In this document: one piece after another, positions 49,918 to 63,323 of the stretch
Numbering within the stretch: position 1 is the first letter of the stretch
Layout: every line of letters starts with the position of its first letter
Origin: an uncultured Gemmatimonadales bacterium
Lineage (GTDB): Bacteria > Gemmatimonadota > Gemmatimonadetes > Gemmatimonadales > GWC2-71-9
DNA length: 64,000 nucleotides
Reading direction: 5' to 3'
Assembly (NCBI GenBank): GCA_963844035.1
Contig: CAWJMT010000027.1
Span: forward strand, 49,173-113,172
The notes under the pieces: generated by a model
The model's database searches: none
What the model was told of the DNA's origin: nothing
The model's input: the letters and a program-made list of their open reading frames with translations, nothing else
Made by a program: the position numbers and the translations under genes

Positions 49918-50337
49918 CTACTCCCCCAAAACCTTGATGATCAGCCGCTTGCGACGCTGGCCGTCCCACTCGCCGTAGAACACGCGCTGCCAGGGGCCGA
50001 GATCGAGCTTTCCCTTGGTGATCGGCACGATCACCTCGTGCCCGATCGTGAGGCTGCGCAGGTGCGCCGCGGCGTTGTCCTCACCCGTTTCGTTGTGGCG
50101 GTACCGGCCCGGCTCCCAGGGCGCGATGCTCTGCTCCAGCCACCGCAGGATATCCTCCCACAGGCCCGACTCGTGGTCGTTGACGAACACCGACGCCGTG
50201 ATATGCATGGCGCTCACCAGCACGAATCCCTCCCCCACGCCGCTGCCCGAGACCTGGGTGGCCACTTCGTCGGTGATGTCGATGATCTCCTGTCGTTTCT
50301 TGGTGGTGAACCAGAGGTAGTGCGTGTGGCTCTTCAT
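49918..50337 (-). CDS. yjbQ: YjbQ/UPF0047 family protein
   Basis: HITAS, NAAAHL, LGPWQ, EWDG. Confidence 0.9.
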
Positions 50338-50396
50338 GTCAGACCCCTGTGTCGAATTGTCGCACCCGGACCTTTGTTCTAGATTGGCCCAGTAAT

Positions 50397-51601
50397 ATGC
50401 CGCTTTCCTTCCGTCAGCGGATCTTCGTTGTGCTCGCCGCGTTGACGGCCGTCCCGACCATTCTCGCCGTGATCGGGTGGGCGCTCGCAGTCCGGGCAGG
50501 TGCTCCCTCGACGGGAGCGCGGGTGTCGCTCGAGCAGGTGGCCGTTTCGGCGCGGGAGATGCTCGAGCACGTGGACACGCTGCGGCTCGATCGCGACGAC
50601 CGCGCGGCGATGGGCCGCCACCTGGCGGAAATCTCGAACGCGGTGACCCTGTCGCGGCGCGCAGAGACGTATCTCCGCTACTACACGGCCGGCTTCGTCG
50701 CCGTGGTGCTGCTGCTCGGCCTGGTGGTCCTCTTTGCCGGCGTGCGGGTCGCCGGGCATCTGTCGCGACAGCTGTCACGTCCCATCGATGAGCTGGTGGG
50801 GTGGACGCGGCTGATCCGCCGGCGCCTGCCCCTCCCGGCCGGTCCCCCGTCGCGGGGCGCTCCCGAGTTCCAGGCGCTGCGCCAGGCGCTGCGCGAGCTG
50901 GTGGCAGCGATCGAAGCGGCCCGCGAGCACGAGCTCGAGTCGGAGCGCCAACGCGCGTTCCGCGAGGTGGCGCGGCGTGTGGCTCATGAAATCAAGAATC
51001 CGTTGACGTCCATGCGGATCGCGGTGGACCAGCTGGGGCGGGTCAGGCGGGCAGGCGGATGGACGGACGGCGATGGCACTCGAGGTGCTGGCCGCCGAGA
51101 CGGAACGGCTCGATCACCTGGCGCGCGAGTTCGCGGATTTCGGCCGGCTGCCGGAGGGAGCGCAGAGCGACGTCGATCTCGTGGAGCTGCTCGAGGATCT
51201 GGCGCGATCCGCGGTGCCGGACGGCGTGCGCGTCGTCGTGCGGGCGAACGGCGGGCGCCGGATCGCTCCCCGGCCACTACGATCCGCTGCGTCGCGCCTT
51301 CTCGAACCTGCTGCGGAATGCATCGGAGGCGATGGACGGACGCGGCGAGATCGACGTCGGCATCACCACCGACGGGGCCGCCGAGCGAAGCGGGTTGGTC
51401 GTGACGATCGCAGACCATGGCGCCGGGATTCCGGAGGAGCTGCGCCAGCGGGTGTTCGAGCCGTACTTCACCACCAAACACGATGGCACCGGCCTCGGAC
51501 TGGCGCTCGTCCGCCAGACGATCGAGGCCCATCGCGCGTCGATCCGCGTCGACGAGACACCGGGTGGCGGCGCGACCTTTACGATCGTGTTCCCCGCATG
51601 A
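50397..51601 (+). CDS. Sensor histidine kinase, NtrY-like (frameshifted)
   Basis: [39 protein letters not shown]. Confidence 0.9.
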
Positions 51602-52975
51602 GCCCCCGGATCCTGTTGGTGGACGACGAAGCCAACATCCGCCGCATGCTGGGCGCGCTGCTGCAGTCCGAAGGGTTCGAGACGGCGGAAGCGGCGAATG
51701 GAACCGCCGCCCTCGCCGCGCTGGAGGCGGCGGGTCCCGACGCGGTGCTGCTCGACTTGATGATGCCGGGCGGACCGGACGGCATCGCCACGCTCGAGCA
51801 GCTGAAACGCCGGGCGCCCGGATTTGCCGGTCGTCATGATGAGCGGCAAGGCGAGCCTCACCGATGCGGTGCGCGCGACCAAGCTCGGTGCCTTCCAGTT
51901 CCTCGAGAAGCCGCTGACGCCCGAGGGCTGCTGGTGGCGCTGCGGGCCGCGCTGGAGCTGTCCCGGACCCGCGCCGAGAACCAGCGCCTGCACGAGGCGC
52001 TGGGCCACAGCGATCCCCTGATCGGGCCGAGCCAGGCGCTGACCGAGGTGCGCGCGCGCATCGCGCTGATCGCCCCCACCGAGGCACGGGTGCTGATCAC
52101 CGGCGAGTCCGGCACGGGCAAGGAGCTGGTCGCCTCCGCGATCCACCAGCAGAGCACCCGCGCCGCGCGGCCGTTTGTGTGCGTGAACAGCGCGGCGATC
52201 CCCAAAGACCTGGTCGAGTCGGAGATGTTCGGGCACGAGCGCGGGGCGTTCACCGGCGCCGGCGAGCGGCGTCACGGCCGCTTCGAGCTCGCCGACGGCG
52301 GCACGCTGTTCCTCGATGAGGTCGGCGATCTCGGCCCCGAGGCCCAGGCCAAGCTGCTGCGCGTGCTCGAAACCGGTGTGATCGAGCGGCTCGGCGGCGA
52401 ACGGCCGACCACGGTCGACGTGCGCGTGATCGCAGCCACCAACAAAGGCCTCGCGAAAGCCGCGCAGCAAGGGCAGTTCCGCGAGGACCTGCTGTTCCGC
52501 CTCGACGTGCTCCCGATTCATATCCCGCCGCTACGGGAGCGGACCGACGACATCGCCCCGCTGGCGCACCACTTCGCCGCGCGCCAGCAGGCGCCGCTTG
52601 AGACGGCCGGTGCGCTTCGACGGCGGCGCCATCCCGCTCCTCACCGGCTACGGCTGGCCGGGGAACGTGCGCGAGCTGGCCAACATCGTCGAGCGGCTCG
52701 CGATTCTCGCGGGAAGCGAAGTGATCAGCGCCGACGACGTGGCCCGCGTGCTTCCGAACAGCGCGGGCGCGGTGGCGTCGGGGGAGGGCGCGTGGGCCGA
52801 CGTGGCGCTGTCGGACGCGCTCGACCGCTACGAGCGCACGTTGATCGCGCGGGCCCTGTCGGCCGCGCAAGGCAACGTCGCCGACGCGGCCCGCAAGCTC
52901 GCGACCGACCGCGCGAACCTCTACCGCCGGATGCGCCGCCTCGGGCTCGAGCCGCCGCGTACCGCGCCCGGATGA
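51598..52975 (+). CDS. Sigma-54-dependent response regulator, NtrC/NtrX family (frameshifted)
   Basis: Receiver domain, [22 protein letters not shown], Fis HTH. Confidence 0.93.
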
Positions 52976-52998
52976 CACCCTCGTCCCAGGACAGGCTT

Positions 52999-54753
52999 AT
53001 GCGTTCCATTTTCCTCGCCGCCCTCGCGCTGGCTGGCCCGGCGCTGGCCGCCGCGCAGCAGACCGCGCAGGACACGGCCATCGTCATCAATCCCGACAGC
53101 ACTACCAAAGCCGCGGCTCCGGAAGGAATCCCGCCGGCGGTCGCGAAGGAGGCAGTGCGGTTCTTCAACGCCGCCACTACGACGCGGCTGGTGGGCCGCA
53201 CGCACCTGCCCCACCGCAACGAGTGGCACGGCGACGTCGCCGTCCGTAACGGGTCGGTCGATCTGGCGGGACGCATCAAGGGCAGCCTGTTGGTCATCAA
53301 CGGCGACGCGACGCTCGACTCGACGGCGGAGGTGACCGGCAGCGTCACCGTGGTCGGCGGCTCGGTCACCGTCGCGCCCGGCGCGCAGGTCGGCGGCGCG
53401 GTCCACGCGTATCGCGAGACGCTCAACTACCGCTCGAACGGTGAAGAAATCGCGCTGGCGCCCAATCCCAGGAGCCGCATCCCGTTCATCGGCGCCCGGA
53501 AGACCTGGGCGGGCACGGAGTCGTACTCGGCGTTGGCGATCGCCACCGGCGGCACGTTCAACCGCATCGAGGCACTCCCCGTGGTGCTCGGACCGGAGTT
53601 CGCCTGGCGCGTGCGCGAGGGTTTCGGCGTGCGGCTGGATGCCCTCGCGATCGTCCGCACGGTGGGCAACGTGGGCGAGGGCGAACCGAGCACGCTCGGC
53701 TACATCGTGAACTCGGAGGTTCGCTCGGGCGCTCCGCGGGGTTTCGGGGCCGGACTGCGGCTGTACAGCGAGCTGGGGTCGGTCGAGAGCTGGGCCCTCA
53801 CGGACGCGGAGGTCGGCTGGGCCTCGTTTCTCTTCCAGCGCGACTACCGCGACTACTACTTCACGCGCGGCCTGCACGGCCGGCTGTTCGCGCAGCCGAC
53901 CCTGCCCCTCCGGGTGTCGCTGGGGCTCGGCTATGACTGGCAGACCAGCGTCCAGGCCCGCGACCCGTGGACGCTCACCAACACCAAGGACGCCTGGCGG
54001 CCCAACCCGCCGATGGATGCCGGACACTACACCACGCTCACCACCTCGGTGACGTTCGACACCCGCAACGACCACGAGCAGCCGACCGCGGGGTGGCTCG
54101 TCGATGCACAGCTCGACAACGGCTGGGCGCCCGACGTCAGCCCTCAGGTCCTGCCGATCGCCGTGCGGGAGGCGATTCCGACCGACGGCTCGTATCACTT
54201 CCACCGCCTGTTCCTCGACATCCGCCGCTACACGCGGGTGAGCCCGGGCGGGCGAGTCAATTTCCGCCTGATCGCGGGGGGCTGGCTGGGCGGCGATCCC
54301 CTCCCGCTGCAACAACGCCTCTCGCTCGGCGGCGCGGGCGGCATGCCGGGCTACCCATTCCGGCGCACGGCGTGCAACGGCGACATCACCGATCCCGCGT
54401 TCGCCGGCAGCCTGGTCGCAGCGTGCGACCGCGTGCTGCTCACGCAGGTGGAATACCGCGGGCATCTCTCGCTGCACTGGGCGTACGGCCGGTCGCGCCC
54501 CGAGGACGAGACGAGAAAGTCGCCCCTCACCCTGCAGGGGCCCGACCTGGTGGTGTTCGGCGACGCGGGGCAGGCGTGGCTGGTGGGTGAAGGCCCGGGA
54601 CGGCTGCCGGCCAACCGCCTTCCCACGATCAGCAGCTGGCTGGCGGACCTGGGACTGGGCATGGATTGGGGAGGCTTTGGCGTGTACGTCGCGAAAGCGG
54701 TGACATCCGGGGAACCGCTGCGCGTCACGCTGCGACTCGTCCACCGCTTCTAG
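52999..54753 (+). CDS. Outer-membrane protein with bactofilin-like N-terminal repeats and BamA/TamA-like barrel
   Basis: Signal peptide, GDVAVRNGSV repeats, FDTRND, SLGG..MPGY, terminal HRF. Confidence 0.7.
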   Translation: MRSIFLAALALAGPALAAAQQTAQDTAIVINPDSTTKAAAPEGIPPAVAKEAVRFFNAATTTRLVGRTHLPHRNEWHGDVAVRNGSVDLAGRIKGSLLVINGDATLDSTAEVTGSVTVVGGSVTVAPGAQVGGAVHAYRETLNYRSNGEEIALAPNPRSRIPFIGARKTWAGTESYSALAIATGGTFNRIEALPVVLGPEFAWRVREGFGVRLDALAIVRTVGNVGEGEPSTLGYIVNSEVRSGAPRGFGAGLRLYSELGSVESWALTDAEVGWASFLFQRDYRDYYFTRGLHGRLFAQPTLPLRVSLGLGYDWQTSVQARDPWTLTNTKDAWRPNPPMDAGHYTTLTTSVTFDTRNDHEQPTAGWLVDAQLDNGWAPDVSPQVLPIAVREAIPTDGSYHFHRLFLDIRRYTRVSPGGRVNFRLIAGGWLGGDPLPLQQRLSLGGAGGMPGYPFRRTACNGDITDPAFAGSLVAACDRVLLTQVEYRGHLSLHWAYGRSRPEDETRKSPLTLQGPDLVVFGDAGQAWLVGEGPGRLPANRLPTISSWLADLGLGMDWGGFGVYVAKAVTSGEPLRVTLRLVHRF

Positions 54754-54754
54754 A

Positions 54755-55365
54755 GTGCGGAGCTGGGTCGCAGGTATCCTGCTCCTCGTCGGGGCGGCGG
54801 CGTCGGCCGCCGCTCAGGACCCGTCGCTCACGGTGACGCTGCAGAACGGCGTGCCCCGCGTGCAGGCCGCCGAGCTGCTCGCCAACGGAAAATTCCTGGG
54901 GCTGATGCGTTCCGGGTTTCCGCTGCGGCTGCACTACCGGCTCGAGCTGTGGCGCACGAAATCCGGGTGGTTCGACGACCACATGAATGAAACCGCGTGG
55001 GATGTCGTCGCGCACTACGATCCCCTGGCCGACGACTTCGTGCTCGTGCGCACCGGCGGCATCGCGACGCGCTACGCGCGCGTCGAAGCGCTGGCGCAGG
55101 CGCTCCAGGTCCCCTACAAGGTGACGCTCGCCCCCAAGGGAGCGGGGAGCTACTACTACCTGTGCCGGCTGGAGATCTCGACGCTGAACGACACGGATCT
55201 ACGGGAAGTGCAGCAGTGGCTCAAGGGGGACGTGTCTCCCGCGGTCACCGGCCGGGTGGGGACCTGACCAATGCCGTGGTGCTGGGCGCGCAACGGGTGC
55301 TGGTACGAATCGCGGGGTTGCCGCGGCTGACGCTGGAGGCGAGGTCGGGGGAGTTCAAGAAATAG
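54755..55365 (+). CDS. DUF4390-like exported protein (frameshift near 55255)
   Basis: SGFPLRLHYRLELWR, YDPL. Confidence 0.6.
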
Positions 55366-55426
55366 GTGTCAGGTGTCAGGTGTCAGTCAGGTGTCAGGTG
55401 TCAGGTGTCAGGTGTCAGGTGTCAGG
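55364..55426 (+). repeat. (GGTGTCA)n heptamer array, left arm
   Basis: About 8 units, inverted relative to 55899-55934. Confidence 0.9.
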
Positions 55427-55822
55427 CGCGTTCTTGAGAGCCCGGGTGAGTCCGGAAAGCATTTTGCCAATCTCACTCGCTTGCAGTAAGAATTTGCTCC
55501 TCCTCTTCCTTCTTGCACGTAGCCCCTCCGCCCGGCGATCAGAACTTGAGTTTCCAACTCCATCAAGGAGCCGTTTGCGATCGACAGGTGGCGAAGGTAG
55601 TCGCCGAGATGGTCTCCTCCCGTGTCCCTCGGCAATGTTCGACGGAACAGACACAGCTGCGCGCCTCAGTTGCTGAGCGAGCCCGTACTTCTCCTCCTTA
55701 GGGAAAGAATCGGTCAGACGGTATGCCTCAACCACGAGATCCATCGCCCGTCCCCAAACAAGGAGGTCACGGAATCCATTGATGAGCCGCCGCGGCGGTT
55801 CATTCGGCTTGTCCAGGATCAT
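55415..55822 (-). CDS. Four-helix-bundle protein (23S-rRNA-IVP / Avd-like family; frameshifted)
   Basis: FRDLLVW..AMDL, FPKEEKYGL..QLRRAAVSVPSNIAEG, ANGSLMELETQ, KMLSGL. Confidence 0.92.
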   Translation of the reverse strand: MILDKPNEPPRRLINGFRDLLVWGRAMDLVVEAYRLTDSFPKEEKYGLAQQLRRAAVSVPSNIAEGHGRRPSRRLPSPPVDRKRLLDGVGNSSSDRRAEGLRARRKRRSKFLLQASEIGKMLSGLTRALKNAPDT

Positions 55823-55898
55823 CGTGTGTGTGACGGAGTCTACAGAACTTGAGTCTGCGAAGGCACACCATTTTGCGGCGAGGACTACCAGATTAGCG

Positions 55899-55934
55899 CA
55901 CACCTGACACCTGACACCCGACACCTGACACCTG
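55899..55934 (-). repeat. (CACCTGA)n heptamer array, right arm
   Basis: About 5 units. Confidence 0.9.
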
Positions 55935-55940
55935 CCTCTC

Positions 55941-56348
55941 TCAGCTCCCGAACTGCGCGTCGATTGCCTTACGAATCTCTTTGAGAGAGTTCCTTGAGCC
56001 GGCCATTTTCGCGGCCATCATCGCTTCTCCCATACAGATGTCGCAGTAGGCTCCGTGGTCGGTCTCGAAGCAGGTGAGCAGCGACCGGTGGCCGATCGAC
56101 TTGCTGCAGTTGCAATGGCAGTAGATGCCGTCGAGCACCTGCGGCGCGCGGCGTGCGGCCTCGTAGGCCTCGAGCGTTCCGGCGCCCACCGGCACCATCC
56201 CCGGCGGCAGGACCCGCTCCGCGGTAATACCGGGGCGCGGATCGGGGTGGATGATGGCGCTGGCGCCCGCCGGCGCGCTGTTCATGGTCATGACCACGAC
56301 GAGCCCCACAACCGCCGCACCGCCCACCACCCAGGGCAGCTTGCTCAT
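55941..56348 (-). CDS. PCYCGC-motif-like membrane-anchored protein
   Basis: IYCHCNC, HRSLLTCF, HGAYCDIC, IRKAID. Confidence 0.75.
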   Translation of the reverse strand: MSKLPWVVGGAAVVGLVVVMTMNSAPAGASAIIHPDPRPGITAERVLPPGMVPVGAGTLEAYEAARRAPQVLDGIYCHCNCSKSIGHRSLLTCFETDHGAYCDICMGEAMMAAKMAGSRNSLKEIRKAIDAQFGS

Positions 56349-56896
56349 AGCCCCTCGAGGGTGGCCAGCACGTCGGCCCCGTAGAACAGCCGGATGTAGC
56401 GGGACTGGACCGATGGTGAGGCGCCGCACCGCCCACGCGAGGTGCACGAAGTGCGGCTCGACGGGTGGCTGCAGCGGGTGCATCCCGACCTCCGCGGGGA
56501 GGAGGTTGCCCTTGCGCGTGTTACAGGTCGAGCACGCCGTGAGGACGTTGGTCCAGGCGTTCGAGCCGCCGCGCGAGATCGGGCACGAGGTGGTCCCGCG
56601 TGAGGCATTCGCGGTGGCGCAGCTCGTGCTGGTGGCGGCCGCAGAACTGGCAGCGGTAGTTGTCGCGGGCGAACAGGAACGTGTTGGTGACCTGGCGGCG
56701 GAAGCGGCGCGGCACGTGGACGAACTTGACCAGGCGAATCACGGCCGGACGCGGCATCGGCGAGGCGCTCGCTGCGCACAACGGAGCCGTCCGCCTCGAC
56801 GATCTCCGCTTTGCGGTCGATCACCAGGCGTAGCGCCCGGCGCACGGGCACCATGGTCAGCGGCTCGAAGGACGCGTTCAGCGCCAGACAGCGCAC
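56345..56896 (-). CDS. HNH endonuclease (frameshifted)
   Basis: LALNASFEPL, FARDNYRCQFCG, TRDHL, WTNVLTACSTCNTRKGN. Confidence 0.9.
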   Translation of the reverse strand: MRCLALNASFEPLTMVPVRRALRLVIDRKAEIVEADGSVVRSERLADAASGRDSPGQVRPRAAPLPPPGHQHVPVRPRQLPLPVLRPPPARAAPPRMPHAGPPRARSRAAARTPGPTSSRRARPVTRARATSSPRRSGCTRCSHPSSRTSCTSRGRCGASPSVQSRYIRLFYGADVLATLEGL

Positions 56897-56983
56897 GAGA
56901 CTCTCCCGCGAAAAAAGGCCGTCTCACCCCGGAGGAGCGGGACGGCATCATATGGTACACAAACAGCTTAGGCGCGGCAAGCG

Positions 56984-57065
56984 GGCGACGGTCGAGGACG
57001 GTCGAAGGACGGTCAAGGACGGTCCTCACCCCCTGACCCCCTCTCCGCATTCGCGGAGAGGGGAG
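56984..57065. repeat. Decamer tandem (GGACGGTCGA)n plus REP-like hairpin CCTCACCCCCTGACCCCCTCTCC..GGAGAGGGG
   Basis: The hairpin recurs at 58757-58796; the decamer complement occurs at 57445-57475. Confidence 0.7.
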
Positions 57066-57226
57066 ACGCAAGGCGACCGCATTTCGCAAAGGATTGCACA
57101 CGAGCAGCGTTGCTTCGGTACGGAGGCCGCGACCGACACGTCTACATTCGCCGCGCGGCACGGTGGCGCGTGCATGGTCCGTCGTCTCGGCCTTCGGGCT
57201 TACCAGTGGTTCGCAACCGGTATGGT

Positions 57227-57310
57227 GCTGGCGTGGCGAAACTGGTAAACGCGGCAACCTCACACGTTGCTGGGCGCGAGCCCTTGTGGGTTCGAATCCC
57301 ACCGCCAGCA
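57227..57310 (+). tRNA. Non-canonical tRNA: Leu-type class II body with CAC (Val) anticodon
   Basis: GCTGGCG/CGCCAGC-A73; D-arm GGCGAAACTGGTAAACGC; stem GCAAC-CTCACAC-GTTGC; V-arm GGGC-GCGA-GCCC; T-arm GTGGG-TTCGAAT-CCCAC. Confidence 0.85.
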
Positions 57311-57326
57311 CCGCCGTATTTTGCCA

Positions 57327-57355
57327 TTGCGTCACCACGACGTTGCCGATATTTT
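57327..57355 (+). promoter_or_regulatory. Putative sigma-70 promoter of anti-tRNA sRNA 1
   Basis: TTGCGT-N17-TATTTT; equivalent hexamers in all three copies. Confidence 0.6.
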
Positions 57356-57361
57356 GCGACC

Positions 57362-57442
57362 ACGTGTGAGGTTGCCGCGTAGCCAGTTGCGCTACGCCGA
57401 AGAAAGCCGGGAGCGTGATGCTTACCGGCTTTCGTCTTTTCT
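57362..57442 (+). ncRNA. Putative anti-tRNA small RNA 1
   Basis: First 19 nt are the exact reverse complement of 57249-57267, then near-complement of the D-arm; ends in the GAAAGCCGG/CCGGCTTTC hairpin. Confidence 0.65.
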
Positions 57443-57491
57443 GCCCGCCCTCGTCCGCCTTCCACCGCCGCCGTTCCGTGATACGGACACC

Positions 57492-57510
57492 GTATGCATA
57501 TTCTGCATAC
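57492..57510. promoter_or_regulatory. Palindromic operator upstream of the antitoxin
   Basis: GTATGCA-TATTC-TGCATAC perfect inverted repeat. Confidence 0.55.
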
Positions 57511-57531
57511 TCCACATTCGGGAGACGTTGT

Positions 57532-57771
57532 ATGGGACACAAGGTGCGCAAGACGCTGAACATTGACGCAGACAAACTGAAGCGCGCGCAGGACTACCTG
57601 GGGCTCGACACTGAGACCGAGGTGATTGACCTGCTACTCAACCGGCTGCTGGACGATTGCGAATTCGAGCGCGAACTGGCGGAACTGAACCGCGAATTCG
57701 GGACAGTCCTCAAGGGTTTCCGGTCCCCGCTCGTTGCGCGCCTAAAGCCGCGGCTCGGCATCTCCCGCTAA
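57532..57771 (+). CDS. VapB-like (RHH) antitoxin, orphan
   Basis: RKTLNIDADKLKRAQDYLGLDTETEVID pattern; GGAGA RBS. Confidence 0.65.
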   Translation: MGHKVRKTLNIDADKLKRAQDYLGLDTETEVIDLLLNRLLDDCEFERELAELNREFGTVLKGFRSPLVARLKPRLGISR

Positions 57772-57895
57772 AGCGGGTCTGCGCCGCCCGTTCACGGGCA
57801 GGTGCCGAGCCGCGAGTTCACTCGCGCACTCCAACACACGCCGAGCCGCCGTCCGGCCATATTGCCACCGTGCCCGCTCCCAGCTCCCCTCCCCC

Positions 57896-58747
57896 GTGAC
57901 CCTCCCCCAACTCCTCACGTTGCTGCGCAAATCGGTGGTGGCGTGGTATGACGACGACTGTTCCAGCATGGGCGCGGCGCTCGCCTTCTACACGCTCTTC
58001 TCCATCGCTCCGCTGCTCGTGATTGTCGTCGGCGTCGGGAGCCTGATTTTCGGCCGCGATGCCGCCCACGCGCAGATCCTCGGCCAGGTGCGCGCACTCA
58101 TGGGCGACGCCGGCGCCCAGGCCGTCGCGGACCTCTTCAATAGCGCGAACAGCCCCGCGACCAGCGCCCTCACCGCACTGGTGGGTACCATCTTCCTGCT
58201 GTTCGGCGCGACGGCCGTGTTCACTGAGGTGTACGGCAATTTCGACCGCATCTGGCGCAACCCCTCCCCTCCCAAAGCCAGCGGCATCTGGGAACTCGTC
58301 CGCACCCGCATCCTGTCGTTCGGGATGCTCCTCAGCATCGGATTCCTGCTGCTCATCTCGCTTGTCATGTCGGCCGGCATCGCGGCGGCCGGCGACTGGT
58401 GGTGGATCGGCTTTCTGCGCTGGCCGCTCGTGGGCAAGGCCGTCCGCGTGATCGTGAGCCTCGCCACCTACACGTTGGCCTTCGCGATGATCTACAAGGT
58501 TCTGCCCCGCGCAAGCATCCACTGGCACGACGTCTGGACCGGCGCGGCGGTGACCGCCGCGTTGTTCGAGATCGGCAAGCTGTTCATCGGGTGGTACCTC
58601 GCAAGCAGCATCACGTCGGTGCTCGGCGCAGCCGGCTCGCTTGTGGTGCTGCTCGTCTGGCTCTACTACTCGGCGCAGGTGTTCCTGCTCGGTGCGGAGT
58701 TCACCAAGGTGTACGCCTATCGGCGCGGGTCGCGTTCGGGAAAGTAG
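57896..58747 (+). CDS. YihY/BrkB family membrane protein
   Basis: MGAALAFYTLFSIAPLL, IYKVLP, GAAGSLVVLLVWLYYSAQVFLLGAEF. Confidence 0.93.
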   Translation: MTLPQLLTLLRKSVVAWYDDDCSSMGAALAFYTLFSIAPLLVIVVGVGSLIFGRDAAHAQILGQVRALMGDAGAQAVADLFNSANSPATSALTALVGTIFLLFGATAVFTEVYGNFDRIWRNPSPPKASGIWELVRTRILSFGMLLSIGFLLLISLVMSAGIAAAGDWWWIGFLRWPLVGKAVRVIVSLATYTLAFAMIYKVLPRASIHWHDVWTGAAVTAALFEIGKLFIGWYLASSITSVLGAAGSLVVLLVWLYYSAQVFLLGAEFTKVYAYRRGSRSGK

Positions 58748-58846
58748 CTGACGTGACCTCACCCCCTGACCCCCTCTCCCTATCGGGAGAGGGGGAACGC
58801 GCGGGACGTGTCGCGACATCACCGCCTTCGACCGCCCTCGTCCGCC

Positions 58847-58921
58847 CAGTTCTGTGAATCGGATGATGCTCGCGTAGAAATGGTTACGCCCTGCCATCAG
58901 AACCCGGTACGGTTGAGGCCA
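58847..58921 (+). repeat. Conserved ~75-nt non-coding element B1
   Basis: Differs from 61086-61160 at about 8 positions. Confidence 0.7.
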
Positions 58922-58991
58922 GTCCTCTCTCCCCCGGCTCGTGAGGTGGCTCTTGACTCGGCACGCACCATCGCCAACGATTCCGTCAGCC

Positions 58992-59268
58992 ATGCCGGTC
59001 ACGATTCCCTCCGCAGCCCTGCGCCAGATGAGCGAGGCGGAGCGCACGCGGCTTCTCGATGCCGCGTTCGCGCACTCGCCTGAGGCCCTGGCCAACTATC
59101 TCGCCGTGCTCGACGCCCGCATCCGGGTGTTCGAGCAGCGCTACGAGCTGCCGACGTCGGCGCTTCCTGAAGCCATGGCCTCCGGCCAGCTCCGGGACAC
59201 GGCAGACGTGAGTGAGTGGCTGTTCTGGGCACAGCTGCGGAGTGACCTTGCCCGGGAAGCACGGCTAA
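58992..59268 (+). CDS. TumA-like antitoxin
   Basis: FEQRYELPT...SGQLRDTADVSEW pattern; overlaps the toxin start; its stop needs a small indel correction. Confidence 0.6.
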
Positions 59269-59712
59269 CCGCCTCGGCAACTACCTCGACGTTCACGACT
59301 CCCACATCGCGGACCTCATCGCCGAGGGGTTCGTGGTGGAAGATCAGTCGCGGTTCATTTTCCTGCCGGTCTCGTGGTGCTGGAGGGTGTGATCGTTTGC
59401 CTTGACCGCATCAGACTTGAGGTGCGGAAGGAGATCGAGGTCCTGGAGGGACGCGGGATGGCCGCTCGCGTGGACTCGTCGGTTCCGGTATCACGCCTGG
59501 CTACGCGGCGTCTACAACGTCCTGCGGTACGAATCCGCTCACGAACACCGCCCGCACCCTCACAAGCACGTGTACGACACGTTCGGTCACGGACGCGAGC
59601 CGAGTGTCATTGACTTGAGAAAGAGGATGATGTTCCGACGCTCGGCGAGGTTCTGCGGGAGTTGCAGGCGTGGCACGAGGGGAACGCGGCCAGGCTGAAG
59701 TATCTGAAGTGA
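59248..59712 (+). CDS. DUF6516/TumE-like toxin (frameshifted)
   Basis: Stitched frames give FRYHAW...VLRYESAHEHRPHPHKH...PTLGEVLREL. Confidence 0.6.
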
Positions 59713-59752
59713 GGTCATTGCGCCGCGAAAACCTTGACGATATTCTTCGATC

Positions 59753-59832
59753 ACTTGCGGGGTTGCCGCGTAGCCAGTTGCGCTACGCCGAAGAAAGCCG
59801 GGGAGCGTGATGCTCACCGGCTTTCGTCGTCT
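59753..59832 (+). ncRNA. Putative anti-tRNA small RNA, orphan copy
   Basis: Promoter TTGCGC-N17-TATTCT (59718-59746); same body and hairpin; anti-loop TTGCGGG. Confidence 0.6.
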
Positions 59833-59869
59833 CCGCCCAGTGAACCCCGGGGCCGTCCTCGTCGCGGGT

Positions 59870-59905
59870 TACCCCGGGGCACGGCCCCGGGGTAAACCCA
59901 CCCGG
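59870..59905. repeat. REP-like CCCCGGGGCAC.GCCCCGGGGTAAACCCACCCGG element
   Basis: Recurs at 61000-61035. Confidence 0.6.
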
Positions 59906-60107
59906 ATGAGATCCCAACGATGACCGCCTTCGCCCGCCTTCCACCGCCGTCCTTCGTCGGATCCGTCGCAAGAATTCGGTATGCGTAGCGTTGCTGCGGT
60001 ACGCAGGCCGCGACCAACGCTTCTACATTCGCGCCGCGGCACGGTGGCGTTTGCATGGTCCGTCGTCCTGGCCTTCGGGCTTACCAGTGGTTCGCAACCG
60101 GAATGGT

Positions 60108-60191
60108 GCTGGCGTGGCGAAACTGGTAAACGCAGTAACCTTGCAAGTTGCCGGGCGTGAGCCCTTGTGGGTTCGAATCCCACCGCCAGCA
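60108..60191 (+). tRNA. Non-canonical tRNA: Leu-type class II body with TGC (Ala) anticodon
   Basis: Near-identical to 57227-57310; stem GTAAC-CTTGCAA-GTTGC; U3:A70, so no G3:U70. Confidence 0.85.
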
Positions 60192-60246
60192 CCGCCGCGT
60201 TCTTTTGCCATTGCGCCGCCAAGACCTGACTCGATATTGTTCGACC

Positions 60247-60326
60247 ACTTGCAAGGTTGCCGCGTAGCCAGTTCGCTACGTCAAGAAAGCCGGAGAGCGT
60301 CATGCTCACCGGCTTTCGTCGTTTCT
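60247..60326 (+). ncRNA. Putative anti-tRNA small RNA 2
   Basis: Promoter TTGCGC-N18-TATTGT (60211-60240); starts ACTTGCAAGGTT, complementary to the TGC anticodon arm. Confidence 0.65.
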
Positions 60327-60452
60327 GCCCCGTCGTTTCTGTCCCGCTAACCCCGCACCGCGTTTGCTTCCCGACACCGCCTTTGCCTTCCCGACACCGC
60401 CTTCGGCCTTCAACCGCCCTCGCCCGCCCACCTGTCCCACCGACCCGTATAT

Positions 60453-60977
60453 TTGACCTCGCGCGACAGCATCAACACCCAGCTGCGCGCGGCGTTGGAC
60501 GGTGCCACGGCGCAGTGGGGGATCAAGATTGTGCGGGTGGAGCTGAAGAACATCACGCCACCGGAGGAGATTCGCCTCACGATGGAGAAGCAGATGACCG
60601 CCGAGCGGAGCCGGCGGGCCGTGGTCACGACCGCGGAGGGCGAGAAATCGTCCGCGATTCTGCGCGCCGAGGGGCTGAAGCAGGCGGCGATCGTCACGGC
60701 CGAAGGAGAGAAGCAGTCCGCGATTCTCAGTGCCGAAGGTCAGGCCGAAGCACGGCTGCGTGTGGCGGGGGCCGAGGCGCAGGCGCTGCGGGTGGTGGCT
60801 GAAGCGCTCGGGAAGGACGGCAAGCCGGCGCAATACCTCATCGCCAAGAGCTATCTCGAGTCACTGACCGGCATCGCGAGCGATGCCCAGAAGGTCGTCT
60901 TCATGCCGTTCGAAGCATCCTCGGCGATGGCGTCGATCGGGGCGATCAAGGAGTTGTGGGGGGCGACGGGGGGGTGA
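60453..60977 (+). pseudogene. N-terminally truncated SPFH/stomatin (QmcA-like) gene
   Basis: Begins mid-domain at LTSRDSIN; WGIKIVRVELKNI, MEKQMTAER, AEGEK repeats. Confidence 0.8.
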
Positions 60978-61085
60978 GGGGGTGGGCGACGCGTGTTTAG
61001 CCCCGGGGCACCGCCCCGGGGTAAACCCACCCGGTCAAGATTCACTGTGTTGCCCGCCCTCGCCTGCCGCTTCACCCTCCCGCCG

Positions 61086-61160
61086 CAGTTCGGTGAATCG
61101 GATGATTCTTGCGTAGAAAGGGTTACGCCCTGCTAATAGAATCCGGTACGGTTGAGGCCA
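61086..61160 (+). repeat. Conserved ~75-nt non-coding element B2
   Basis: Copy of 58847-58921; CAGTTCGG can pair with CCGAACTG just downstream. Confidence 0.7.
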
Positions 61161-61283
61161 ACCGAACTGCCTCCTCACTCCCGCGCGGACTGTCACACCC
61201 TGTTCGCACCTCGGTGCAACTTCAGCGTGGAGGCAGTGTGGCAATCTTGAAGTCGTGCCGCGCCCGACAGAGCGAAGGGACAC

Positions 61284-62348
61284 GTGGCACGCCCTGATCG
61301 CCTCAACATCATCGGAGAGCTCGAGCGCCTTCGTGGCTCGCGCGTCATCACCTTGCTTACGGGTGACCGGGCTCCGGACTACGGCACGATCATCGCGGGC
61401 GACGCGCCGCCACTGCTCTACCGGCATCTCGAGCGGCTGGGCAAGGTCGATCAGATCGACCTTCTCCTCTATAGCCGAGGCGGGCACACTCTAAGCGGCT
61501 TTCGCATCCCGGCACTGGTTCGCGAGTACTGCACACGGTTTTGCGTGTTGATCCCGTACCGAGCGCACAGTGCCGCTACGCTGGTGGCCCTGGGCGCCGA
61601 CGAGATCGTCATGACGCCGCTAGCGGAGTTGAGCCCGGTCGATCCTTCTACGAATGGTCCGTTTAATCCTCCCGCGCCCGTGCAGGTGGCAGCGGGACAA
61701 ATGCCCCCGACGTTCCCCGTAAGTGTGGAGGACGTCGTGGGCTACCTGAACCTCGCGAGAGAGGAAGCGGGCCTTCAGGATTCTCAGGCGATGCGGGAGG
61801 TGTTTACTCGGCTGGCGACAGACGTCCGCCCGCTGGCGCTTGGGCAGGTTTTTCGCGCACGATCGCAGATTCGCATGTTGATCCGCAAGTTGCTCCTGCT
61901 ACACGAGAATCCACCCGGCCGCTCGCGAATCGCGGGTCTCGTGAAGGCCGCACCGGCGCGTCGGCGAATGAGAAGCATCGTTACGACCCTCTCAGAGAGA
62001 CTCCTCTCTCACGACTACTTGATCACGCGCGCGGAGGCGAAGACGCTCGGTCTCAAGGTAAAGTTTGCCTCGGCGGACGAAGAAGGGCGCATGCTTGCCC
62101 TGTACCGCGACTACGAAGCGGCTATGCAACTCTCAGAACCCTTCAACGTGGAGACCGTTCTCCCGGCCTCGGGGACGCTGCAGATCACCTTCGAGCGGGC
62201 ATACATCGAGAGCAGCTTCGGTGCCCACATCTACCGCACAGTGAAGGAGTTCAGGCGGGCAGCAGCGGCGGGGCAGCAAGCGCAGCAGTTGCAAACTGCG
62301 GAACGCATCGTGCATGACGGTTGGGTGTTGACCGACGCTAAACCGTAA
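61284..62348 (+). CDS. SDH-family ClpP-fold serine protease
   Basis: IDLLLYSRGG, IPYRAHSAATLVALGADEIVM, LSPVDP, SHDYLITRAEA..LGLKV. Confidence 0.85.
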   Translation: MARPDRLNIIGELERLRGSRVITLLTGDRAPDYGTIIAGDAPPLLYRHLERLGKVDQIDLLLYSRGGHTLSGFRIPALVREYCTRFCVLIPYRAHSAATLVALGADEIVMTPLAELSPVDPSTNGPFNPPAPVQVAAGQMPPTFPVSVEDVVGYLNLAREEAGLQDSQAMREVFTRLATDVRPLALGQVFRARSQIRMLIRKLLLLHENPPGRSRIAGLVKAAPARRRMRSIVTTLSERLLSHDYLITRAEAKTLGLKVKFASADEEGRMLALYRDYEAAMQLSEPFNVETVLPASGTLQITFERAYIESSFGAHIYRTVKEFRRAAAAGQQAQQLQTAERIVHDGWVLTDAKP

Positions 62349-62701
62349 GAGATATTGCCACTTCAATGGATGACTTCTTGAGGGGCTACTCCTTGAAGGT
62401 ACTGGGCGCGTGGACGGGTGCCCGGGTGGCTTTCCCGGCCCAGTCTGCGGGAGCTGAACCGTGGAGCGGCGCTTTCGATCACGCCGCGCCTACGTGGACG
62501 CCAGCCAGCCGACCCTTCTCGCTCCACAGGAGGAGTTGCCGCTCGAAACGCCTCCCGCTCCCGATGCGGAAGCCACCTAGACTCCTCGGCCGCCGCCCGT
62601 ATCAGACCGCCGCAGTACCCCGTCTCCACCGCCCTCCACCCCAACCGCCCTCGCCCGCCCGACCCTCGCCGCATGTCACACCGCGACCGCATATTCTCCC
62701 C

Positions 62702-63323
62702 GTGCCCAGCACACCAAAGTTCGCTCCCTCCCCACGCCTCACGGCAGCGTTCGAGTATGCCTGCCAGCTCCACGCGAACCAGCTTCGGAAAGGGGCGACG
62801 ATCCCGTACATCGCCCATCTGATGGCCGTCGCCGCGCTGGTGATGGAGCACGGCGGCGGCGAGGACGAGGCCATGGCGGCGTGCTGCACGATGCCATTGA
62901 GGATCAGAACCACGACGGGTCGGTTCCGGGAGAGGTCGGCGCGCGGTTTGGGCCGAAAGTGCTCGCGCTCGTCGAGGCCTGTTCCGACTCAAAGGGGCCG
63001 GACAAGCCACCCTGGCGGGAGCGCAAGGCAGCGTATGTGGCCCATCTACGGACCGCGCCACCGAGCGTACGTCTTCATCTCGGCGGCAGACAAGCTGCAC
63101 AACGCCCGCGCGATTCTTGAAGACTACCGCAGGCTGGGCGACGAGTTGTGGGAGCGGTTCAATACGGGTCGGGAGGACAGTTGCGGTTACTACAGCGACC
63201 TGGTCACTGCATTCAGAAGGCCGTGACCAGCGGCCAGACTCGAGCGTTGGTGGACGAGCTGGATCGGTGGTGACGGCGCTCGAACGCGAAATCGACAGCG
63301 CCGCCGAGGGCCCAGGGAAGTGA
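62702..63323 (+). CDS. HD-domain protein, Mesh1/small alarmone hydrolase-like (frameshifted)
   Basis: HANQLRKG..PYIAHL, LHDAIED, ACSD, WRERK, ADKLHNAR. Confidence 0.88.

Follow-up and report, generated by a model that had tools for sequence, protein, structure and literature searches.

A probable folding lock on a predicted toxic tRNA: a leader complementary to the D-arm and anticodon loop in Gemmatimonadota

The toxin mRNAs of hok/Sok and of H. pylori aapA/IsoA adopt a metastable fold during transcription, with a long-distance clamp between their 5′ and 3′ ends, and convert slowly to a form that is active and also sensitive to an antisense RNA antitoxin (PMC9841398, PMC6733600); the full-length hok RNA is described as closed, its slow maturation permitting translation and Sok binding (PMC9841398). 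In the type VIII systems CreTA and SdsR-RyeA both partners are RNA (PMC10767807): CreA represses transcription via CRISPR-Cas and CreT sequesters a tRNA, SdsR and RyeA are encoded on opposite strands, and the same source describes neither system as a tRNA toxin or a self-locking precursor. Unusual tRNAs are known as well. In tRNA-ProX, which has Pro identity and a companion ProRSx, identity and anticodon disagree, and the tRNA is toxic under constitutive expression in E. coli (PMC10404621). The nematode nev-tRNAs are Leu-derived class II tRNAs with non-Leu anticodons that tend to rare codons; they are leucylated, and Gly is decoded as Leu in vitro (PMC3333845). The allo-tRNAs are odd tRNAs with diverse anticodons, an 8/4 or 9/3 acceptor branch and Ser or Ala charging, lie near toxin-antitoxin genes and include two variants that caused cell death (PMC5389517). 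In E. coli, pairing of a precursor leader with the 3′-RCCA works as an RNase P anti-determinant: two or more such pairs lower kcat/Km, 13-fold for a GG leader, and G(-2)U(-1) leaders are routine there (18 of 87 precursors; PMC9433436).

Here we analyse a tRNA module of about 300 nt that occurs in two copies in the window, by which we mean the whole stretch of 64,000 nt from an uncultured Gemmatimonadales bacterium (contig CAWJMT010000027.1). The family of such loci, more than 120 in number, comes from uncultured bacteria of soil and water, and leader and sRNA alike have varied together with the tRNA. The predicted end-to-end clamp, metastable fold and slow conversion of the module and its candidate antisense RNA would resemble those of hok/Sok and aapA/IsoA, but the cargo is a tRNA where those systems have an ORF, the D-arm and anticodon loop would be hidden in place of a Shine-Dalgarno sequence, the antitoxin would be a same-strand inverted copy located downstream, and activation would need RNase P and CCA addition. 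A conserved reading frame, as expected of a type I protein toxin, was not found in the leader alignments, which carry indels of all lengths. As in type VIII, both partners would be RNA, but in contrast to CreTA the sRNA of the module directly complements the tRNA, and no Cas family was found among 12 window and 68 flank proteins (1.5-kb flanks); unlike SdsR and RyeA, the two RNAs lie in tandem on the same strand. If toxicity holds, the module would fit the broad type VIII definition and neither described subtype. With tRNA-ProX it shares the disagreement of identity and anticodon, but it has a Leu body, two antisense elements and no companion protein that we could see (no synthetase family among the proteins scanned in the 1.5-kb flanks), and the main text of the tRNA-ProX paper does not contain the word 'antisense'. 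The nev-tRNAs, whose abstract does not mention antisense control, are eukaryotic, whereas the module tRNAs match the commonest codons rather than rare ones. An allo-tRNA identity was considered and rejected, because the acceptor/T-stem of the family is 7/5 and not 8/4 or 9/3 (PMC5389517, PMC7609411); neither 'antisense' nor 'leader' occurs in the main text of the allo-tRNA paper. The RNase P anti-determinant recurs as GGT:ACC, but the E. coli version comprises 2-3 bp (PMC9433436) and here it is part of an anti-tRNA of about 30 bp. In a literature search of open-access papers, no tRNA gene turned up that has an anti-tRNA leader or an antisense antitoxin dedicated to it, and this RNA-only module is apparently undescribed so far.

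All parts of the module lie on the forward strand. Because a strict promoter and terminator scan of the window module found none, promoters and starts were placed by a looser score. For the precursor of copy 1, the best sigma70-like score (6 of 12) marks a weak candidate -10 at 57143..57148, with a predicted start near 57155. The leader of about 72 nt then contains a 5′ end that pairs with the 3′ trailer at 57313-57317 (57155..57159, from covariation), the 5′ strand of an intra-leader helix P1 (57161..57164, partner 57216-57219) as an alternative pairing once the cloverleaf forms, a segment against the anticodon loop (57169..57177, from covariation), a UUCG hairpin insertion found in subfamily A only (57190..57199, from alignment and folds), the anti-D-arm segment (57200..57214, partner tRNA 57236-57248, from folding, shuffles and covariation), and a GGT at -3..-1 (57224..57226) that pair counts place opposite the ACC at 57310-57312. 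The tRNA itself (57227..57310) has a type II Leu body with anticodon CAC (57261-57263), A73 and no encoded CCA, and is supported by ARAGORN, by Rfam RF00005 (59 bits) and by stem covariation. Downstream lie a candidate promoter (57327..57355; -35 at 57327-57332, -10 at 57350-57355; score 7 of 12) and antisense sRNA 1 (57362..57441), predicted from duplex energy and fold, with a 5′ tail against the anticodon arm, an anti-D-loop hairpin and a terminator-like hairpin at 57402-57433. Copy 2 comprises a leader (60036..60107, anti-D segment 60081-60095), a Leu-body type II tRNA (60108..60191; ARAGORN, Rfam) with anticodon TGC (60142-60144) and A73, and a candidate promoter with antisense sRNA 2 (60211..60326; -35 at 60211, sRNA about 60247-60326). 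Both tRNAs are 84 nt long with a long variable arm and are called Val(CAC) and Ala(TGC). At or near the gathering score only RF00005 passes in Rfam, and the leader and the sRNA match no family.

The earlier note had claimed that the leader of both copies can pair with the D-arm, and this complementarity was confirmed: 57200-57207 pairs with 57241-57248 (8 bp) and 57210-57214 with 57236-57240 (5 bp), a 13-pair helix interrupted by a 2-nt GG bulge. The segment recurs identically at offset 2881, but because the two copies are paralogues that are 88% identical, its presence in both is not independent evidence, which the homolog sets provide instead. The duplex of leader positions -40..-7 with tRNA positions 8-25 reaches -17.2 kcal/mol, with p=0.01 (copy 1) and p=0.03 (copy 2) when the leader is dinucleotide-shuffled 100 times. 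The nested minimum-free-energy folds of the finished window precursors, a check that the note had proposed, lack the helix; its pair probability in the nested model is 0.00-0.08, and forcing it costs 0.8-9.7 kcal/mol across 10 start points.

Homologs were merged from a DNA search of 60 relatives, 19 extra regions and a pattern scan of a genome collection. The scan gave 72 stretches, among them 4 that are not tRNAs, 6 dropped for T-loop insertions, 1 ordinary archaeal tRNA-Ser and 3 from other phyla that were kept as a contrast. After duplicate removal the family set holds 67 distinct loci, from the order of the window and from records titled Gemmatimonadota (one titled 'bacterium HR33'). A held-out metagenome set was drawn from 80 loci among at least 124 matches, from which 69 tRNAs were parsed and 10 matches remained unparsed; 9 that repeated earlier tRNAs exactly and 3 whose flanks were short were removed, leaving 57 loci. 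An all-family MAFFT alignment put the leaders of the two subfamilies out of register, so pair counting used two sub-alignments, A with 37 of the 67 leaders (hairpin type, aligned by sequence only) and B with 25; L010, L035, L063, L066 and L111 are in neither. The first family pattern required C or T at position 36, and the complementary pattern gave 3 matches in 401 genomes, 2 of them family members with GCG. L122 and L124 form a divergent subfamily with the Arg anticodon GCG and a matched downstream sRNA, and the L122 leader has a strong UUCG hairpin where a clear anti-D segment would stand.

The covariation in homologs that the earlier note had asked for was found in three sets, namely subfamily A, subfamily B and the held-out loci. 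The leader pairs with its own D-arm better than shuffles do in 38 of 67 family loci and in 37 of 57 held-out loci among the matches listed, compared with 1 of 28 rows (27 distinct; mean -11.0 kcal/mol) for canonical tRNA-Leu/Ser leaders and 0 of 3 among the other-phylum tRNAs with odd anticodons. Own leader and own D-arm average -17.6 kcal/mol against -15.7 kcal/mol for permuted partners, and none of 5000 permutations was as good (67 loci); in the held-out loci, among the matches listed, the same result (0 of 5000) was obtained for the D-arm and for the anticodon arm. The anti-D helix of subfamily A (12 pairs, 37 leaders) is 92.8% paired, compared with 26-60% in slid registers, with 21 two-sided cells against 6.6 when shuffled, a contrast that such shuffles overstate because kin have sequence in common; these two-sided changes fall in only 4 of the 12 pairs, a count that 59 of 500 shuffles reach and that is not significant alone. 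Branches with a change on both sides number 9 against 4.2 (P=0.012) on a tree built from all columns, the tested columns included, and 6 of 10 D-arm variants that break the pairing are rescued (1.0 expected). In subfamily B five helices across 25 leaders are 87.8% paired, with 44 two-sided cells against 17.7. Leader pairing contains G-U 34 times and A-C 7 times. The strongest covarying pair, 65:118, is entangled with the tRNA-internal covariation 109:118, and RNAalifold returned the cloverleaf, not the leader helix, for both subfamily alignments. The two-sided changes and the excess of G-U over A-C point to selection that acts on RNA, and judged by this comparative evidence the leader/D-arm helix is real and selected.

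About five leader helices covary, this one among them. Read 5′ to 3′, the leader contains an anti-trailer segment, a segment against the anticodon loop, one against the 3′ strand of the D-stem, the optional UUCG hairpin, the anti-D segment, RCCG and GGT, and it is thus a degenerate, colinear reverse complement of the tRNA, its mirror image. The anti-trailer helix is 92.8% paired with two-sided changes in subfamily A (co-substitution on the tree P=0.001) and 90.4% paired with other letters in subfamily B. The anti-anticodon segment is 83.3% paired with two-sided changes in 5 of 9 pairs, and it tracks anticodon swaps: 30 of 53 tRNA variants are rescued against 4.8 expected, and both sides change on 14 branches against 6.4 (P=0.0015). 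This tracking is imperfect, in that the leader of copy 1 fits TGC better than the CAC of its own tRNA. In P1, which forms in the cloverleaf state, pair 23:81 ranks 5 of 14564 column pairs by unsupervised covariation, and co-substitution is 7 against a null of 1.8. Several leader segments, therefore, have two partners. As for the proposed extension of the acceptor stem by GGT and the 3′ ACC, the pairing is possible and conserved, with all three pairs in 43 of 67 loci (51 with a 1-nt bulge allowed) against 0 of 27 canonical tRNAs, a weak control because those genes have no encoded CC; co-substitution, however, was not found for it on the tree.

The reading of the earlier note, that the precursor would be made in an inactive fold, is supported by covariation and folding models, with a refinement. 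Co-transcriptional models favour the lock in the nascent RNA, but the finished window precursors favour the cloverleaf by 2.1 and 6.8 kcal/mol, so that a lock there would be kinetic and not an equilibrium state. When transcripts were started at the anti-trailer segment, the median energy difference between the locked and cloverleaf ensembles was 0.2 kcal/mol, with the lock favoured in 18 of 37 precursors. In growing transcripts the anti-D probability exceeds 0.5 in 20-24 of 37 until the 3′ strand of the acceptor is complete and in 13-14 afterwards; in this folding model the leader-locked form is favoured until that strand and the ACC emerge. For copy 1 the nascent anti-D probability is about 0.9 and drops to 0.02, and for copy 2 it is less steady (0.07 to 0.88). 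In full precursors the anticodon loop is paired with the leader in 34 of 67 cases for the own leader, 0 of 67 for shuffled, 10 of 67 for swapped and 2 of 27 for canonical leaders. Nascent pairing of the D-loop has a high background, at 0.66 for the own leader against 0.39 for shuffled and 0.43 for canonical ones (controls 0.39-0.52). Direct-path refolding barriers, which are heuristic upper bounds for nested routes, range from 17.6 to 45.5 kcal/mol, with 25.8 and 22.8 for the window copies. All folds were scored as nested structures.

Each tRNA is followed in tandem on the same strand by an sRNA region of about 80 nt that ends in a terminator-like hairpin. On average, the promoter-like site of the sRNA scores 8.0 of 12, that of the leader 5.7 and the region after canonical tRNAs 3.5. 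The predicted sRNA provides the matched complement expected of a type I antisense antitoxin: it matches its own anticodon loop in 63 of 67 loci in a strict 9-nt test, and a matched sRNA is present in 57 of 57 held-out loci among the matches listed (8-nt test). The own tRNA is the best target for 52 of 67 sRNAs compared with 7 of 67 leaders, and the duplex energy of antisense sRNA 1 is -71.3 with tRNA 1 against -55.9 with tRNA 2. The sRNA covers the same tRNA nucleotides as the leader. The stretch from tRNA to sRNA showed no terminator-like hairpin, and the two are predicted to pair in cis if transcription reads through, which in such a model could be another route that the lock blocks. Orphan sRNAs and broken tRNAs occur, and a tRNA that lacks an sRNA-like region was seen in 0 of 57 held-out loci among the matches listed. 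The genome of the window (G000) has four full modules, two on contig C27 and two on C4, and C4 also has an orphan sRNA (410140-410340, about 410260) with nothing but a tRNA 3′ half ahead of it. In the window, an orphan promoter with an sRNA (59718..59830, sRNA from about 59753) is directed against a tRNA with anticodon CGC, for which no target was found in this assembly.

The conserved unit of the tRNA is a cloverleaf with compensatory stem changes and a 7/5 acceptor/T-stem in consensus folds. A73 is present in 67 of 67 loci, an encoded CCA in none and G3:U70 in one. The identity elements of E. coli tRNA-Leu are A73, A15-U48, G18G19 and A20a, with the anticodon unused (PMC9976931); these bacterial elements and a long variable arm are all present, A73 as counted across the 67 loci and the others as read from the window sequence and the alignment. 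From these elements we infer that the family tRNA would be leucylated. The 67 anticodons are CGC (20), CAC (19), GTC (7), GGC (6), GCC (3), GGT (3), CTC, GAC, TTC and TGC (2 each) and AGC (1), that of L007 being assigned by hand, which gives at least 11 different anticodons in the family. Including the GCG members, they cover every one of the 8 non-Leu codons that belong to the ten commonest codons of the genome (1697 long ORFs), and G+C mutational bias could add to this match. The Val-anticodon copies (21 of 67), which have A35, C36 and A73, might be correctly charged with valine. C replaces U33 in 17 of 67 tRNAs and may blunt decoding, as judged from work on U33 (PMC11415595). Codon reassignment was rejected for two reasons: a canonical 74-nt tRNA-Val(CAC) and three canonical tRNA-Ala(TGC) are still present in the genome, and the family has so many anticodons.

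Other long-arm tRNAs and rearranged family members were also recorded. L054, L083 and L104 (one clostridial and two acidobacterial records) are long-arm, Leu-like tRNAs whose anticodons are for Gly or Ala; no leader pairing and no obvious sRNA were found for them, and they are possibly separate mistranslating tRNAs or pseudogenes. The T-loop is interrupted in the family tRNAs L070, L073, L085, L090, L097, L113, L133, L153, L155, L161, L176 and L198 by palindromic insertions of about 45-90 nt with at least 3 different sequences, which may represent recurrent inactivation of the tRNA or a tRNA-targeting repeat or intron-like element. The acceptor 5′ strand is deleted in L153, L156 and L176, in which the leader joins the D-arm directly, and five copies lie on one 13-kb contig (L153-L155).

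The module was found in 11 of 60 relatives and in 1 of 6 genomes of the same genus, and the family pattern had 0 matches in viral contigs. A search of sequencing runs listed no RNA data set that holds it, which counts neither for nor against expression. Its neighbours are unrelated among loci and include RelE, Phd/YefM, HepT, Uma2 and a weak VapB-like match. In the window, small ORFs lie between the modules (57532-57771 and 58992-59713), one with a weak VapB-like match (E=0.003, below the cut-off), and they include an unannotated pair that resembles a type II toxin-antitoxin cassette with a frameshifted second member. Two copies of a 75-nt repeat (58847-58921 and 61086-61160, 89% identical) lie upstream of small genes, and tandem 7-nt repeats in inverted orientation (55364-55426 and 55900-55937) flank a 23S rRNA-IVP family gene. 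Genes split across frames at 56345-56896 and elsewhere in 50000-63300 (HNH-like by reading; HD-domain) suggest assembly indel errors.

Taken together, we consider it probable that the leader folds, while the RNA is being transcribed, over the D-arm and the anticodon loop and so locks in a long-lived, inactive shape the precursor of a tRNA predicted to mistranslate and be toxic. A weak promoter would yield a precursor with the leader of about 72 nt, which would pair with the emerging D-arm and anticodon arm before the acceptor stem closes, after which the 5′ end would clamp the trailer; the pairings come from covariation and the timing is predicted. By analogy with full-length hok mRNA, the locked form would offer RNase P no tRNA elbow and would hide the loops targeted by the sRNA, and would thus be harmless and antitoxin-resistant. 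Slow refolding would give the cloverleaf with the leader closed on itself through P1, as predicted from two-state energetics, with GGT:ACC presumably still slowing RNase P, an effect known from E. coli. The released form would normally be caught by the sRNA; upon loss of the sRNA, the tRNA would be trimmed, receive CCA, be charged with leucine and insert Leu where abundant codons call for Ala, Val, Asp, Gly, Glu, Thr or Arg. Since the antitoxin covers the very nucleotides of the tRNA that the leader covers, a locked precursor would, like hok, also be protected from that antitoxin. The earlier note had called the leader a second safety layer; following the analogy, it would be a timer or reservoir as much as that.

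The same covariation would also fit a leader that is a pure brake, which lowers the amount of mature tRNA or promotes decay of the misfolded precursor and provides neither reservoir nor timer, or one that RNase P cleaves off and that then serves in trans as an additional antitoxin. Roughly half of the precursors are predicted to favour the locked fold at equilibrium, and the covarying P1 could stabilise a released leader. We nevertheless think this unlikely, since segments with two partners and balanced states suit a switch better than a dead end, and since the leader binds its tRNA far less well and less specifically than the sRNA does, as the best-target counts indicate. That the complementarity has no RNA role at all, but is left over from an inverted duplication and maintained in DNA by template-switch (quasi-palindrome) correction, is highly improbable. 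A duplication would give the observed colinearity with the reverse complement of the tRNA, and shared ancestry makes the shuffle controls overstate the signal; against this reading stand the excess of G-U over A-C, which is a strand-specific signature, the retention of the internal loop and hairpin insertion where correction would have perfected them, the pairing kept by subfamilies with different letters, and the leader of copy 1, whose fit to TGC and not CAC indicates that it is not auto-corrected.

The lock could also be real and the tRNA not a toxin but a regulated, conditionally useful mistranslator or a decoy for synthetase or ribosome, with leader and sRNA as its regulators. The tRNA-ProX mistranslators have been proposed to be beneficial under stress (PMC10404621), and C33 together with the many Val anticodons suggests a mild action. 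This explanation is nonetheless quite unlikely in our view: the patchy presence argues against it, as do the unshared neighbours, several of them type II toxin-antitoxin or defence genes, and the occurrence of orphan sRNAs and inactivated tRNAs set against the tRNAs that always, among the held-out matches listed, retain an sRNA-like region.

The best reading is therefore that a mistranslating-tRNA toxin would carry a folding timer of the hok/Sok kind, which would delay maturation and hide the antitoxin target. The wider proposal, on which our judgement is evenly balanced, is that of a phylum-wide, protein-free addiction module of Gemmatimonadota, in which a tRNA toxin would rewrite the commonest codons to leucine, the leader would be a two-state switch that builds an antitoxin-proof reservoir, lethal once the sRNA is gone, and anticodon swaps would give new specificities. 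If this is true, annotation miscalls such genes as ordinary tRNA-Ala, -Val, -Asp or -Gly, and a tRNA that can be locked and is under antisense control would lend itself to conditional missense suppression as a ready-made part. The module would require host enzymes only, more than 120 natural variants exist, and each step is testable in vitro and in cells. The tRNA would join the list of bacterial toxins, and an evolved antisense leader would be able to set a folding timer on tRNA maturation, the logic of type I mRNAs reached independently.
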